Assembly (NCBI GenBank): GCA_945861645.1
Contig: CAMAVZ010000024.1
Location: 1 to 29,800 of the forward strand
DNA length: 29,800 nucleotides
Source of the DNA: Opitutus sp. GAS368
GTDB taxonomy: Bacteria > Verrucomicrobiota > Verrucomicrobiia > Opitutales > Opitutaceae
Direction: 5' to 3'
Made by a program: the position numbers and the translations under genes. Position 1 is the stretch's first letter, and every line of letters begins with the position of its first letter. Of this stretch, positions 1,781 through 25,142 are shown piece by piece. The notes under the pieces were generated by a model. That model made no database searches. It saw only the letters and a program-made list of their open reading frames with translations, and was not told the origin of the DNA.

Positions 1781-3640
1781 ATGAACCCAATCCACTCGGG
1801 GCCGGCGTGGCGCCACTTCTCCTTAGTTGGCCTATTACTCACGGGCATCATCGGGGCCCAAATTACCGCTCCGGAAGTTTTGCCCGTCTATGTTTTGACG
1901 GCGACTCGAACCCCATCGGCGCTAACGACCATCGGCAGTTATGTCGACACGCTGAGCGCGACTGAGCTAGCGCGGATGCAACGCACCAGCTTATCGTCAG
2001 CGCTCAGTGGCATCGCGGGAGCTCCCATTTTCGCCTCGGGTGCCGGCGGGGGCGTGACTTCGCTTTTTCTGCGCGGAGCTAATTCCAACCAGACGCTTTT
2101 CCTGGTTGATGGCATCCGCTTCAACGACCCCAACACTGATTACGCCGTCGCGCTCGGGGGCATGAGCATGGGAGCGGGCGATAGCCTCGAGGTCGTGCAC
2201 GGCCCGCAAAGTACCTTATACGGCGGCGAAGCGGTGGGGGGCGTGCTGGCCTTGCGCGCGGTGCGCGGGGCGGGGATAGCGACGCGGCGAGTCTCGTTTG
2301 AGGCTGGGGCTTTTGGGACGGCGCAAGCGGCCGTGCAGGCCCAAGGCGGGGATCAGGCGTCAGCATATAATTTTTCGGCGCTGAGTGGTCGCACGCAAAA
2401 TAGTCGGCCCAATAATGATTTTAACAGTACCACCTACGTTCTGCGTCTTGACCGACAGCTTAACCGTCAGCTAGCGGTCGGCGCGACCGTGCGGGGTTTT
2501 TTGAGCCACTATGGTTCACCCGGTGACCGCTACACTAACGATCCTGATAACGAAGATCGCGAGAATCAGCAGCTGGCGACGGTGTTTGTGGAATATGCCC
2601 CGACCCCGATGCTGACCAGTAAAGCGGTGCTCGGCGGCCAAGACCGGCGCTTCGTGGCCAGCGAGCGTGGACCCAGCAGTCTCACGGAGACCTTAGTAAA
2701 AAATCGTCGGCTCGTGCTCGATTGGCAAAACACGCTGCAGGCCGGCGAGGCGCATCGCCTGACGGCGGGCTTAACCGCCGAGAGCAATCATACGCGGAAC
2801 ACAGGTTTCGGTAATATAAATCAGCGGCAGCAACTCATGGCGCTATTCGTGCAAGATGAGTGGACTCCCGCGGAGCATTTTTATCTGACGGCGGGAGTCC
2901 GGAGTGACGATCATGATGCGTTCGGGCGGGCGACAACGGGGCGGGCTACGTTGGCGTGGCTCGCGCCCGAGGCGCGCTGGAAACTGCGGGCGACTTATGG
3001 CACCGCTTTTCGGGCCCCAAGTTTTCTCGATCTGTTTGGGCGAAGCTCGTTCTACGTCGGTAACCCGCGGTTGCGGCCGGAGGAAGCTCGTGGGTGGGAC
3101 GCGGGAGCTGATTATTTTCTGCCGCATAATCGCGGCGTGTTGAGTGCCACTTGGTTTGATACCCAATTTACTAATCTGATTAATTATGATTTCGCCGTCT
3201 TTCCCGGCACGGTGCGAAATGTGGGCCGCGCGCGGACCCGCGGCGGAGAATTATCCGGAAAATTCGCACAACCGGGGGTGGCGGAAGTGCGGTTGGTGTA
3301 CACGTATCTCGAGGCCGATGATCTCGGGCAGGGCACGCGCTTGCTGCGCCGGCCGCGGCACAGCGGCGCGATCGACCTCTGGCATGATTTTGGTCACGGG
3401 TTCACGGCGGGCACGGGTCTAACCTGGCAGGCGCAACGTGAAGATGTTGATGCGGCCACCTATGCGACGATTCACGCGGAAGATTACACGGTCGCGAGAA
3501 TTTATGCCGCGTGGCAGGCCGCGACTCGGGTGACGCTCAAGGTGCGGCTGGAAAATATTTTCAATGAAAAGTATGAAGAGGTGAACGGTTATCCGCAGCT
3601 GGGGTTCGGGCTCTTTGCGGGCGTGGAGTTGAAATTCTAA
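1781..3640 (+). CDS. btuB: TonB-dependent outer-membrane receptor, BtuB-like (probable cobalamin uptake)
   Basis: Signal peptide, TonB box (LPVYVLTATR), plug motifs LFLRGANSNQTLFLVDG and GPQSTLYGGEAVGGV, FRAPS and NPRLRPE motifs, C-terminal Phe. Preceded by a B12 riboswitch. Confidence 0.85.
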   Translation: MNPIHSGPAWRHFSLVGLLLTGIIGAQITAPEVLPVYVLTATRTPSALTTIGSYVDTLSATELARMQRTSLSSALSGIAGAPIFASGAGGGVTSLFLRGANSNQTLFLVDGIRFNDPNTDYAVALGGMSMGAGDSLEVVHGPQSTLYGGEAVGGVLALRAVRGAGIATRRVSFEAGAFGTAQAAVQAQGGDQASAYNFSALSGRTQNSRPNNDFNSTTYVLRLDRQLNRQLAVGATVRGFLSHYGSPGDRYTNDPDNEDRENQQLATVFVEYAPTPMLTSKAVLGGQDRRFVASERGPSSLTETLVKNRRLVLDWQNTLQAGEAHRLTAGLTAESNHTRNTGFGNINQRQQLMALFVQDEWTPAEHFYLTAGVRSDDHDAFGRATTGRATLAWLAPEARWKLRATYGTAFRAPSFLDLFGRSSFYVGNPRLRPEEARGWDAGADYFLPHNRGVLSATWFDTQFTNLINYDFAVFPGTVRNVGRARTRGGELSGKFAQPGVAEVRLVYTYLEADDLGQGTRLLRRPRHSGAIDLWHDFGHGFTAGTGLTWQAQREDVDAATYATIHAEDYTVARIYAAWQAATRVTLKVRLENIFNEKYEEVNGYPQLGFGLFAGVELKF

Positions 3641-22019: not shown

Positions 22020-23459
22020 ATGTCCGCCTTGTCCTACGAGACACTCCGCGCTGCTTTCGACGGCCAGTCGCTGTTTGAGAATAAAACCTGGCAGTTGTCC
22101 CCGGAAGCCTGGCCCCTGACGCCAGAGCAAATTACCCAGTTGGAGCAGATTGGGGCAGCGTGCTTAGAATTTCATCAAGCGCTCGAAATTCTCTATCTCC
22201 GCTCGGTAGCGGGAAAAAATTTGCTACGTAATAAGTCATTGTTGGCGCCGTGGGTAGCTGAGTACTTAGATCGTGGCAAGCCAGCCAATCTCGTCGAGCA
22301 TGCGCGTGACCCCAAAAATCGGGGAGCTTTCCCGCCGGTGCTACGCCCTGACCTTTTATTAACAGACGATGGTTTTGTGCTCACGGAATTGGATTCCGTC
22401 CCTGGGGGAATTGGGCTGACGGCATTCTTAAATCGGCTGTATAGCCCGGGGGAATCGACGGCGACGCCGGAGACTGGTGGTGAGGCGATCCTCGGTGCGG
22501 GTGATCGCATGGTGGAAAATTTCTACCAAGCCCTAGCAACGTTGCGGCCTGAGTCGAGAAACCCGCTCATCGTTATTCTCGTGAGTGAGGAAGCAGCGAC
22601 TTACCGTCCCGAGATGCGGTGGTTGGCCGAGCAATTGCAGCGCCTGGGTCGGCGGGTTTATTGTCTCCGCCCCGAGGATGTTTTCCCGCTCGGCGGGGAA
22701 TTATTTTTTGCGGTCGAGGGCACGCCGGAGAAGATCGATATCATTTATCGTTTTTTTGAACTCTTTGACTGGGCGAATGTGCGGATTGCCACAGATATTT
22801 TAGAAGCGTGGCAGAGTGGGGCGGTGACAATTTCGCCCCCGATGCGGCCTTTTCAGGAGGAAAAATTGGCTTTGGCTTTATTTCATCATCATCTCTTGCC
22901 GGAGTTTTGGGCGGAAAATATCAGCCGGCCGCATCTCGAGTTGCTGCGGAAGATTATCCCCGCTTCTTGGGTGATGGATCCCGCAGTGCTTCCGCCCGGG
23001 GCGGTTTTAGATGGCCCGCGGGTCGGGGGGCGCCTTTTGAATGACTGGCGCGAGCTCAGTGGGGCCTCGCAGAAAGAGCGGGATTTAATTATCAAGATAT
23101 CTGGTTTTCATGAAACGGCGTGGGGCGCGCGCAGTGTGATTTTGGGCAGTGATTGTTCGCGCGAAGAGTGGCAGGCTGGAGTGGCGCAGGCGCTCGAGTT
23201 GGCGCCGCGCAATTTGCATCTGCTCCAAGAATATAAAAAGCCGCGGCGGCTCGAGCACTTGCTTTACGAGGAAAATCGGCCGAGCTCGGCCGCAGTAGCG
23301 AAGGCCGGTCGGCTCCGCTTGTGTCCTTACTATTTCGTAGTTGGAGGGCAGGCTCGCTTATCGGGGGCTCTGGCAACTTTTTGCCCGCCCGACAAAAAAA
23401 TCATTCACGGGATGGTCGATGCGGCCTTGCTTCCGTGTAGAGTGTTCACCTTGGGGTAG
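22020..23459 (+). CDS. Uncharacterised protein, probable ATP-grasp/glutathionylspermidine-synthase-like ligase fold
   Basis: 479-aa ORF with RPDLLL...FVLTELDSVPGGIG, DIIYRFFE, EEKLALAL, LIIKISG...WGARSV and LLQEY, in the order seen in circularly permuted ATP-grasp ligases. Confidence 0.55.
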   Translation: MSALSYETLRAAFDGQSLFENKTWQLSPEAWPLTPEQITQLEQIGAACLEFHQALEILYLRSVAGKNLLRNKSLLAPWVAEYLDRGKPANLVEHARDPKNRGAFPPVLRPDLLLTDDGFVLTELDSVPGGIGLTAFLNRLYSPGESTATPETGGEAILGAGDRMVENFYQALATLRPESRNPLIVILVSEEAATYRPEMRWLAEQLQRLGRRVYCLRPEDVFPLGGELFFAVEGTPEKIDIIYRFFELFDWANVRIATDILEAWQSGAVTISPPMRPFQEEKLALALFHHHLLPEFWAENISRPHLELLRKIIPASWVMDPAVLPPGAVLDGPRVGGRLLNDWRELSGASQKERDLIIKISGFHETAWGARSVILGSDCSREEWQAGVAQALELAPRNLHLLQEYKKPRRLEHLLYEENRPSSAAVAKAGRLRLCPYYFVVGGQARLSGALATFCPPDKKIIHGMVDAALLPCRVFTLG

Positions 23460-23693
23460 GGTTGAGCCTGCTCGGTTTTGTCGGTTTTTAGGCGGCGCTA
23501 GCGGCCGAGACCTTGCCGCAGCCCCGGACCAAAGCGACGCACGATGATGCGGTGGCTCAGAATGCGCGGGGGGATATTTACGCCCAAGCCTTGCTCGGTG
23601 TGCCGCCGCGCGGCGACGCTCCCCTGATGGGCGTGGCGGGTCGCAGTCGCTCTCGGTTGGACGTCATCGTCAGCCGAGAGCCCGCGCCGTTCA

Positions 23694-23945
23694 TCAGGCA
23701 ACAGCGACCTGACCGGCGAGAGTCGGCGTGGTGCTCTGCTTGGCCAAGTGATTAAAGAATTGATCACGGCGCTCACGGGCGGTCGTGAGACACTTGGTGC
23801 CTAAGGAGCGACGGATGCGCTCTTTTGTGAAAGGGGTCGGGTAGACCGTGTAATGCAAGAACCACGTTCCGTTGTTGTTCCAGAGGTGGTGGTTGGGATT
23901 CGCTTCGCTGATGCGAAGGGCGGCGAGGGTGATGACGTTGGACAT
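23694..23945 (-). CDS. Small basic protein resembling an integrase arm-type (three-stranded beta-sheet plus helix) DNA-binding domain
   Basis: ATG start, 83 aa, NPNHHLWNNNGTWFLHYTVYPTPFTKERIRRSLGTKCLTTARERRDQF. It is the first gene after a riboswitch and terminator leader. Confidence 0.75.
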   Translation of the reverse strand: MSNVITLAALRISEANPNHHLWNNNGTWFLHYTVYPTPFTKERIRRSLGTKCLTTARERRDQFFNHLAKQSTTPTLAGQVAVA

Positions 23946-23998
23946 GATGCGTGAGCGGTTGAGTTTTAACTAATCGTTCGCGCACCAGGGTGTTCCCT

Positions 23999-24044
23999 AA
24001 AAAACGAAAGCCGCCTGAGAGCATCAGGCGGCTTTCCGTTTTTT
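23999..24044 (-). terminator. Intrinsic terminator forming the riboswitch expression platform
   Basis: Minus strand GAAAGCCGCCTGA-TGCTC-TCAGGCGGCTTTC followed by GTTTTTT: a perfect 13-bp stem (24006-24018 with 24024-24036) about 55 nt before the ATG. Confidence 0.9.
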
Positions 24045-24048
24045 GAGG

Positions 24049-24180
24049 AGGAGTTTTTTTGTTAGAAGGTGTGACCCCTCTCACATCCGGGTGACTCGCG
24101 TCACTCGAAACCACCGTGATCACTCCTAGACCCGGTTGGCAGAACCGACTGTTGCCAGTCGATCCTTTCCTGATGCGAGG
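24049..24180 (-). ncRNA. SAM riboswitch, SAM-I/IV-type architecture
   Basis: Minus strand: P1 CUCGCAUC/GAUGUGAG; J1/2 AGGAA; P2 GAUCGACUG-GCAA-CAGUCGGUU; P3 GCCAACCG...ACGGUGGU with the CAAC/GUG SAM pocket; P4 GUGAC-GCGA-GUCAC; a P5 hairpin after P1; and a 3' ACUCCU (24054-24049) complementary to the P3 loop AGGAGU (24127-24122), the PK2 pseudoknot. Confidence 0.85.
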
Positions 24181-24377
24181 TGAAGAGTGCAAACCGGCGA
24201 CCGGAAGACCAGATAAATTTTTTTATCACCGCCGAAAAAATTTATACCCATCAGCAAGTTGTTGCATTTTTATTAGTTACGTCAGTTAAAGTAGAAAAAA
24301 TATTATTCGGCTGAAATATTTTCACGCGGCAAAGTCTGTCTGATTTGCGTTTTAGGGGAGTTGGCTAAGCTGAGATA

Positions 24378-25142
24378 ATGCTCCGTCTTGATGATATTCG
24401 TGCCCAAATCGCTCCAGCCCGCGCTCGTTTGCTCGCTCATTCGCTGTATGCGCGGATGGCTTCGCTCGATGATGTGCAACGCTTCATGGAATCCCACATT
24501 TTTGCGGTTTGGGATTTCATGTCGCTCCTCAAGCGGCTCCAGCGCGACCTGACCTGCCTCGATCTTCCTTGGGTTCCGGTGGGTGAGGCGGAGGTGCGTT
24601 TCCTGATCAATGAAATTGTGTGCGGTGAAGAGTCAGACGTCGATCCTGCCGGAACGCGGATCAGCCATTTTGAGCTCTATCTGCGTGCGATGCATGAAGC
24701 CGGGGCGGTCGCCACGGCAATCAACGGGGCCCTCGCCAGCGTGCGCGCTGGTGGAGCGACGGCGGTGGCACTGAAGAAAGCGGGAGTTCCCTTAGGTGCG
24801 GCGGAATTTTCGGCGGAAACCTTTCGGCTGGCCGGGCAGGGTGAAACGCATGAAGTAGCGGCCGCTTTTACGTTTGGCCGAGAAGATCTTATTCCGGATA
24901 TGTTCATGCAACTCGTGACGCGGTTAAGCCGCGAACATCCGGGAAAACTTGATACATTTCGTTATTATTTAGAGCGGCACATCGAGGTCGATGGTGGTCA
25001 TCATGGCGCCATCGCTTTGCGGATGGTGGAGCGGCTCTGCGGCGACGATGAGCTGAAATGGCAGGAGGCGGGGCGCGCGGCCCTCGCCTCGATCGAGGCC
25101 CGCATTCGTCTGTGGGACGCGATCGTCGCCACGTTGGTCTAA
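24378..25142 (+). CDS. DUF3050 family protein (heme-oxygenase-like fold)
   Basis: FMESHIFAVWDFMSLLKRLQ, LINEIVCGEESD, SHFELYLRAM, FTFGREDLIPDMF, YYLERHIEVDGGHHG. Confidence 0.88.
   Translation: MLRLDDIRAQIAPARARLLAHSLYARMASLDDVQRFMESHIFAVWDFMSLLKRLQRDLTCLDLPWVPVGEAEVRFLINEIVCGEESDVDPAGTRISHFELYLRAMHEAGAVATAINGALASVRAGGATAVALKKAGVPLGAAEFSAETFRLAGQGETHEVAAAFTFGREDLIPDMFMQLVTRLSREHPGKLDTFRYYLERHIEVDGGHHGAIALRMVERLCGDDELKWQEAGRAALASIEARIRLWDAIVATLV

Follow-up and report, generated by a model that had tools for sequence, protein, structure and literature searches.

The minus strand of a 29,800-nucleotide contig from Opitutus sp. GAS368 (CAMAVZ010000024.1; the whole contig is called the window here) carries an RNA at 24181-24048 that is confirmed, at the level of sequence and covariation, as an aptamer of the S-adenosylmethionine (SAM) riboswitch class SAM-I/IV. 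Behind it lies one open reading frame (ORF) for 83 amino acids, 23945-23694, which is a real gene under purifying selection. At each Opitutaceae locus examined that was informative the two recur together, as they do in other families of Verrucomicrobiota. I propose, with the balance of the evidence modestly on this side, that they form a dedicated SAM-sensing OFF switch whose single cargo is a small transcription-associated DNA-binding protein.

To our knowledge, a riboswitch nearly always governs the enzymes or transporters of its own ligand, and a cargo outside those categories points to aspects of that metabolite's biology still to be explored. In this genome a single SAM-clan riboswitch is detectable, and it serves one DNA-binder-like protein; across the complete genomes compared, RNA and protein either both occur or are both lacking. 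The protein's family, about 970 clusters at 50% identity, has no curated counterpart and includes fusions to sigma factors. If the protein is a regulator, then the unit would be a clean relay from riboswitch to transcription factor, and it would offer a handle on methyl-donor shortage in a widespread and poorly studied phylum. What is presented, then, is a known class of riboswitch whose cargo appears to be of a new kind and whose platform is unusual, and a protein function that I infer from sequence. An earlier note on this DNA, made from its letters, knew of no described system of this kind, and the searchable literature likewise yielded no description of a unit joining a SAM riboswitch to an arm-type domain; the SAM-I/IV gene contexts in the supplements of Weinberg 2010 could bear on its novelty. 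Literature on DUF6538, on SAM riboswitches of Verrucomicrobia and on riboswitches of Opitutaceae held nothing relevant that could be found.

The aptamer and the gene behind it

A cmscan of positions 23650-24400 matches 24048-24181 on the minus strand to the Rfam family SAM-I-IV (RF01725), over model positions 1-99 in full, with 36.6 bits and an E-value of 3.7e-4. The orthologous RNA at 18 of 19 loci from the same genus scores from 34.6 to 42.8 bits with that model, the nineteenth locus having no upstream DNA. A covariance model of the aptamer made for this analysis, R1, gives the window copy 153 bits, its sole match in the genome. RNAalifold, applied to 19 copies, returns P1, P2 as one uninterrupted helix, and P3; it also places one hairpin (P4) in the stretch from P3 to P1 and another (P5) beyond P1.

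Covariation bears on each of these elements. In 78 aptamers aligned to R1, an alignment that is fitted to the model and favours its pairs, 98.2% of the cells are paired and compensatory changes occur in 17 of 41 pairs; none of 500 shuffles reaches the observed values, and slid controls are 31-44% paired. P1 and P3 are paired in 99-100% of cells. P2 consists of 11 continuous pairs, six of them compensatory, with one bulged base and neither a kink-turn nor an internal loop. P4, placed after P3 and before the P1 3' strand, has five pairs, of which four have changed on both sides, and 99.7% of its cells are paired; compensatory change is found in five of the six pairs of P5. The pseudoknot PK-2 is supported because the loop of P3 and the 3' tail vary in step, in seven types or more by a reading of the table by eye: AGGAGU/ACUCCU, GGGAGCG/CGCUCCC, GAGAGC/GCUCUC, GAGAGU/ACUCUC, GGAGA/UCUCC, GGGAU/GUCCC and GGAGU/ACUCC. 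All 19 sequences compared share the core nucleotides GCAUC, CCAACCG, ACGGUGG and GGAUG without variation; those in GCAUC, CCAACC, GGUGG and GAUG we take to be ligand contacts, from the crystal structure of SAM-I.

An unsplit P2, with P4 and PK-2 both present, is the SAM-I/IV architecture, on which PMC6890682 and Weinberg et al. 2010 (PMC2864571) agree. RF01725 is the 'SAM-I-IV-variant' of the latter. The complete aptamer that the earlier note had drawn, from P1 to P5 with PK-2, is thus borne out.

At 78 of the 80 loci listed from genome contigs, R1 places the aptamer immediately before the ORF (upstream DNA is missing at the other two). It does so too at 20 of 20 further Opitutaceae loci, at 3 of the 9 loci that a sample of the phylum contributes from other families, and at L021, from another family of the same order. 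A weak match at L140 (24.7 bits) was not placed relative to the ORF. The earlier note had suggested asking whether homologues, too, follow SAM riboswitches, and at most of these loci they do. Four of five complete genomes with the ORF have one copy of the aptamer, adjoining the ORF, and in none of five complete genomes lacking the ORF was any found, in searches that scored 150 of more than 1000 first-look candidates per genome. In the window's own genome, which is 84% complete, the models for SAM-I, SAM-IV and SAM-II (RF00162, RF00634 and RF00521) gave nothing above their cut-offs, which is weak evidence of absence; a genome search with RF01725 missed even the copy in the window, so that this route is insensitive. 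No Rfam riboswitch lies upstream of the metK of that genome.

The ORF evolves as a protein-coding gene. Among 24 riboswitch-linked copies, variable sites number 16, 9 and 50 at codon positions 1, 2 and 3, and the ratio of nonsynonymous to synonymous polymorphism (pN/pS) is 0.14. The core NPNHHLWNNNGTW...RxSLGTK...ARxRRD is conserved, and the C-terminal tail VAVA is retained through synonymous changes. Homologues of 45-146 aa number 1268, and clusters at 50% identity 970, of which the best 150 all have lengths of 65-159 aa. The gene is present in 53 of 91 sampled Opitutaceae genomes and, with weak integrase matches counted in, in 80 of the 401 genomes that sample the phylum. Contigs from one genome per species contain 545 loci, and among the 80 matches listed, all names are of Opitutaceae or other Verrucomicrobiota. 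Two cultured carriers are Oleiharenicola lentus and Oleiharenicola sp. Vm1.

Metatranscriptome contigs from two studies hold aptamer, terminator and ORF in one piece. One (X16) spans 23623-24096; another (X18) spans 23669-24164 at a depth of 46.5, and the contigs flanking it have depths of 7.5 and 9.3. Lake and freshwater metagenomes are the source of the DNA and RNA runs that contain this stretch. In a further run, X17, RNA contigs with depths of 225 and 307 match only the 32-nt ORF core 23861-23892 and then diverge, and therefore homologues from other organisms seem to be strongly represented in that library.

The predicted expression platform

Downstream of the aptamer stands a terminator whose 13-bp stem has eight GC pairs and a 5-nt loop and is followed by GTTTTTT; the earlier note's strong terminator is there. 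Folding of 23990-24210 gives z = -6.4 against shuffles. What is unusual is the recurrence of sequences related to the 5' strand of P1, which together with J1/2 reads GCAUCAGG. Its complement appears as X1 (CCUGAUGC), within the upper 5' arm and loop of the terminator, and a second anti-P1 copy, X2 (CCUGGUGCG), lies 3' of the terminator. The start codon itself is embedded in Y (CGCAUCAUG), a mimic of the P1 5' strand.

These elements are no peculiarity of one leader. In 92 of 94 leaders the stretch from aptamer to ATG contains CTG[AG]TGC once or more (CCUG(A/G)UGC being the complement of the P1 5' strand), and in 56 there are two anti-P1 copies. A run of four or more T occurs in 92, the sequence GCATCATG ends 86, and in 86 the ORF starts inside the P1-strand mimic GCAUCAUG. 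The distant relatives L135 and L136 lack the terminator and retain X2 and the start mimic. Across loci of the same genus, the nucleotide conservation of the leader is extreme.

Folding suggests how the parts may work together. The minimum free energy (MFE) structure of the full window leader, -103.9 kcal/mol, pairs the P1 5' strand with X2; if the aptamer is locked, X2 pairs with the start region. The mean probability of being unpaired around AUG is then 0.09, as opposed to 0.54 when the aptamer is free. In five leaders folded with the aptamer locked, this probability is 0.09-0.19, and the unconstrained MFE structures of three of the five have the P1 strand paired with X2 and an open start (0.54-0.67).

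I infer from these features that the leader works as an OFF switch at two levels, termination and translation. When SAM is high, the ligand would lock P1, leaving both downstream anti-P1 copies free. X1 would then complete the terminator hairpin, stopping transcription, and in those transcripts that read through, X2 would pair with the start region CGCAUCAUG and block initiation. When SAM is low, the P1 5' strand GCAUCAGG would pair with X1 as an antiterminator or with X2 as an anti-sequestor, and the protein would be made.

The small protein and its possible role

The earlier note had likened the protein to the arm-binding domain of tyrosine integrases, of the DUF6538 sort, lacking a catalytic domain. 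The likeness recurs by several routes. An AF2 model from a 49-sequence alignment (predicted local distance difference test, pLDDT, 77.6) has strands at 21-24, 27-37 and 40-47 and a helix at 53-71; an earlier model from a shallow alignment, with a pLDDT of 54.7, was too poor and was discarded. Pfam DUF6538 covers only residues 38-61 and reaches 20.6 bits where 27 is the cut-off (E 3.6e-4). Structure comparison by VIA brings up 2wcc (Z 4.5), 1z1b (Z 4.3) and 3jtz (Z 4.1, root-mean-square deviation 2.3, 28% identity), and the nearest named clusters in the ESM Atlas are Arm-DNA-bind_1/4 and Integrase_DNA, at 0.90-0.91, which is a lead only. The profile A4 matches the N-termini of two PF00589 integrases of 439 and 472 aa with E about 2e-7. 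A search of the PDB by sequence with the family profile returned only spurious repeats of designed WD40 proteins and was set aside. The catalytic domain PF00589 is absent in and after the 83-aa ORF, and the protein is no tyrosine integrase. The model and these matches, individually weak and yet consistent, suggest a stand-alone arm-type domain.

The best argument that such a domain plays a role in transcription comes from the company it keeps. Sigma-70 domains are found in 16 of 42 longer homologues, where the arm-type domain is appended after region 4; others contain a receiver domain (P0285), an ArsR-type helix-turn-helix (HTH; P0310) and a Zeta/AAA kinase, one of each, and none of the 42 contains a MetK domain. 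The sigma-factor, receiver and HTH fusions make a role in transcription plausible. Residues 9-65 of the window protein match residues 326-382 of P0292 with 47% identity and E 6e-17, a segment that follows its regions 2, 3 and 4. Five proteins of the sigma-70 family (P0292, P0299, P0309, P0293 and P0303; 383-420 aa) have the arm-type domain about 50 residues after region 4 and end in AA. The combination of sigma factor and arm-type domain was absent from the literature results, none of the searches having been aimed at sigma-factor fusions.

Most likely, judging from these fusions, the 83-aa protein would bind DNA at or near promoters and change transcription when SAM is scarce. Tails like that of ssrA can act as protease tags. 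It may be speculated that the hydrophobic C-terminal tail, VAVA here and often AA elsewhere (12 of 39 diverse family representatives by my count), shortens the life of the protein, whose level would then follow the riboswitch. Carried further, the idea becomes a SAM-starvation circuit of novel design in Verrucomicrobiota: a riboswitch, and not a metabolite-binding protein, would sense SAM, and its sole output would be a short-lived arm-type factor that reprograms transcription at promoters once the methyl donor is exhausted, alongside an extra C-terminal module of a sigma factor or in its place. Some lineages would have put the same module to use for producing a second SAM synthetase with it. 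That full circuit is a tentative proposal, clearly less probable than the simpler one with which I began.

A second metK is present in 6 of 91 sampled Opitutaceae genomes, and in all six a family member of a different type (type B) lies directly upstream, its stop overlapping the ATG of metK2 and the Shine-Dalgarno sequence of metK2, GGGAGGG, falling within its last codons. RF01725 matches just upstream of the type B ORF in five of the six, with 28.7-39.4 bits. The CCTGATG at the stop of the window ORF resembles a relic of such a metK2 junction, but it was seen in just 3 of 109 loci and is put down to chance. A family tree of 72 columns, poorly resolved and used for this purpose only, sets the type B proteins apart from the lone proteins of type A. 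The notion that the ORF stands alone with no methionine or sulfur enzyme thus describes the window's own genome correctly and does not extend to six related genomes, where a paralogue is coupled to metK2. Since this sister subfamily, behind the same riboswitch class, is so coupled, the link to SAM supply is reinforced. One locus of another family (L022, G053:C1, 1250-2450) has a small-ORF homologue overlapping the start of a phosphoadenosine phosphosulfate (PAPS) reductase gene, cysH. Ahead of this pair lie about 200 nt of leader and a strong hairpin resembling a terminator, a candidate leader of an unrecognised kind; neither an Rfam match nor any known riboswitch was found there. On account of the metK2 coupling and the PAPS reductase overlap, the family is tied to SAM and sulfur metabolism beyond the riboswitch. 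Close to a type B locus, at L217 953-1120, is a group II intron domain (RF02001, 72.7 bits).

Across Opitutaceae, an inverted repeat CATATCA-N12-13-ATGTTGATAT, followed by CTTGC, is conserved about 40-90 nt upstream of metK (L172, G000:C14; also L173-L176 and L185-L213). It is probably the operator or promoter of some regulator of SAM or methionine. The genomes with the repeat comprise 14 listed with the small ORF, two with type B only, one with a weak match and 17 without the ORF. In four Opitutaceae genomes (L173-L176) a gene for adenosylhomocysteinase directly follows metK.

Several observations weigh against the proposed regulator and must be set beside it. The metK repeat, the one sequence tried as the small protein's operator, was rejected: it is equally present in genomes without the protein, and the earlier note's relay of the signal to a wider regulon gains nothing from it, the fusions leaving a transcriptional role plausible. 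The window aptamer, at 36.6 bits, is under Rfam's gathering score of 41.1, which is a curated filter and no structural feature, and what pulls the score down is a set of long insertions, which sit in the P2 and P3 loops, in P4 and in P5. Because of that shortfall a scan of the whole window at the gathering threshold reported only a cobalamin riboswitch; the Rfam comparison recommended in the earlier note succeeds by E-value and falls short by gathering score, though two of the 18 orthologues pass. J1/2 is AGGA, as against AAGA in the family consensus, so a shifted ligand preference is possible (type B aptamers have AAGA). On the protein side, the arm-domain matches by VIA have Z below 5 and are tied with PH/PX domains. 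Foldseek against the PDB gives none at E <= 0.001, with 3rmp_C and 3jtz among weak rows at E >= 0.16; of the structural check proposed in the earlier note, the three strands and the helix were obtained and a significant Foldseek match was not.

The platform has its own difficulties. The structure with the terminator reaches -83.0 kcal/mol and that with a forced antiterminator, P1-5' to X1, -70.2, weaker by 13 kcal/mol; therefore transcriptional control would have to be kinetic. In two of the five leaders the free state opens the start little (L106, 0.39; L134, 0.12). The RNA contigs are strandless, and carry-over of DNA into RNA libraries is possible. Finally, the SAM aptamer is missing from many family members (group f31, 30 of 31 genomes) and from paralogues, so that the domain itself is not SAM-specific. 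The group f31 is abundant and may include gut bacteria. One of its loci (L171, G244:C9) has tandem small genes, 2578-2802 and 3102-3329, with no SAM aptamer, and genomes of the family f72 have up to six paralogues each.

How do other explanations fare? The one to take most seriously, unlikely as I judge it, makes the small protein a partner or helper of MetK, a regulatory subunit or chaperone produced when more SAM synthesis is needed. The six overlapping gene pairs fit the pattern of co-produced partners, and that is what gives the idea its force. It is too much, however, to ask of a MetK helper that it should be fused to sigma factors, a receiver and an HTH and never, in 42 longer homologues, to MetK, or that its predicted fold should be of the DNA-binding type. 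In the window's own genome, moreover, the lone type A gene (C24) is far from the single metK (C14), and most paralogues have no metK neighbour. A predicted complex of two MetK2 copies with the small protein scored 0.00, which speaks neither for nor against. A protein that shields under-methylated DNA, or restrains restriction, at low SAM is a good deal less probable still. The earlier note had offered such protection, and the logic of low SAM and a DNA-binding-like fold is all that recommends it; no restriction-modification genes are conserved beside the ORF in the Opitutaceae loci examined, and the fusions point to transcription factors.

It might also be that the protein is secondary and that the terminated leader is the main product, a riboswitch-derived small RNA acting in trans, as a strong terminator right behind the aptamer and the extreme conservation of the leader could suggest. 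This I consider just as improbable as shielding: the ORF is under selection at the protein level and occurs far more widely than the leader, the switch incorporates the start codon, RNA contigs cross the terminator into the ORF, and L135 and L136 keep the sequestor without a terminator. As for the ORF being the decayed N-terminal stub of a tyrosine integrase, left behind a riboswitch by chance, its weak homology to integrase N-termini invites the thought and the conservation data rule it out, making it the least credible explanation of all. A stub would hardly have a pN/pS of 0.14, a length steady at about 80 aa over 1268 homologues and 970 clusters, or an association with the aptamer that is conserved across families, and the 235 bases before the convergent gene hold no integrase remnant. 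The broken integrase that the earlier note had allowed for is thereby set aside.

The locus and its place among known systems

Read 5' to 3' on the minus strand, the unit runs from an upstream element through the 134-nt structured RNA and the hairpin with its U-run to a 55-nt spacer and the ORF (Table 1). Because the next gene past the ORF is convergent (22020-23459, plus strand), the ORF is monocistronic. That gene encodes a 479-aa protein belonging to no Pfam or NCBIfam family. On the other side, 24378-25142 (plus strand) encodes a DUF3050 protein. In most relatives the downstream neighbour is a convergent gene for a coiled-coil protein of about 800 aa with a C-terminus judged LysM-like by eye, and upstream-side genes vary over the Opitutaceae loci examined. 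The names of relatives matched by homologues are Lacunisphaera, Oleiharenicola and Opitutaceae, within Verrucomicrobiota.

The upstream element, 24224-24187, is probably the promoter region and is conserved in loci of the same genus. It has no match to the sigma-70 consensus. The pattern TCTGG[CT]-N11-17-T[TC][TC]GCA has four matches in the 2.3-Mb genome, the full element with TTTGCAC occurring only here, and no convincing recurrence of the element was seen elsewhere in that genome. Other riboswitches noted are the cobalamin riboswitch of the window (RF00174, 1371-1628, plus strand; 43.6 bits against a gathering score of 31.5, with long insertions) and, close to the type A locus L122, one for thiamine pyrophosphate (963-1076, 55.1 bits).

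Table 1. Features of the riboswitch-ORF unit in the window
Feature	Position	Strand	Basis
Putative promoter region (A-rich run, TCTGG, variable spacer, TTTGCAC)	24187..24224	-	kept in same-genus loci
Aptamer assigned to the SAM-I/IV class	24048..24181	-	RF01725, RNAalifold consensus, covariation, own model R1
Aptamer helix P1	24176-24172 paired with 24087-24083	-	RF01725 alignment, RNAalifold
Aptamer helix P2	24166-24141	-	
Aptamer helix P3	24140-24110	-	
Aptamer helix P4	24104-24091	-	
Aptamer helix P5 (3' tail runs to 24048)	24081-24064	-	
PK-2 pseudoknot, P3 loop AGGAGU (24127-24122) with 3' tail ACUCCU (24054-24049)	24049..24127	-	covariation
Intrinsic terminator, 13-bp stem 24036-24006, U-run 24005-24000	24000..24036	-	sequence, folding
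X1, anti-P1 copy in terminator upper 5' arm and loop	24028-24021	-	complement of GCAUCAGG
X2, second anti-P1 copy, 3' of terminator	23981..23989	-	predicted partner of P1 5' strand or start-codon region
Y, start codon inside mimic of P1 5' strand	23943..23951	-	leader motif counts, folding
83-aa ORF, predicted stand-alone arm-type (beta-beta-beta-alpha) domain	23694..23945	-	ORF list, homologues, pN/pS, AF2 model

Of the systems already described, SAM-I/IV (RF01725) is the nearest for the RNA. The window's RNA shares its P1-P3 core with the conserved nucleotides of the SAM clan, its continuous P2, P4, P5 and PK-2, and a platform predicted to turn the gene off at high SAM. It differs in the long insertions of the P2, P3, P4 and P5 loops, which accompany a score just below the cut-off, in a J1/2 of AGGA and not AAGA, and in its cargo, a small DNA-binding-like protein in place of an enzyme or transporter for methionine, cysteine or SAM. 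The platform of textbook S-box leaders uses the 3' strand of P1. The window's leader, unlike these, appears to use the 5' strand, and to do so twice, in the terminator and in the sequestor of the start codon.

For the protein, the nearest relatives are the arm-type domains of integrases (lambda Int, 2wcc and 1z1b; HPI, 3jtz; the P4-like 3rmp; DUF6538, PF20172), in which a three-stranded antiparallel sheet is likewise followed by a helix. The motif R-x-S-L-G-T...A-R is matched by DUF6538, and the similarity in sequence and structure is weak and repeated. The window protein, in contrast, is about 80 aa and stands alone, with no core-binding or catalytic domain. It has an invariant N-terminal motif of its own, NHHLWNNNGTW. 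Its gene is chromosomal, single-copy and vertically conserved, and relatives in its family are fused to sigma factors, not to recombinases.

There remain the leaders in which a riboswitch (S-box/SAM-I, SAM-IV or SAM-I/IV) controls metK. The type B paralogue resembles them in that the same riboswitch class precedes metK, and differs from them in that a conserved, folded small protein lies between riboswitch and metK2, to which it is translationally coupled. In the lineage of the window there is no metK at all in the arrangement, just the riboswitch and the small protein.

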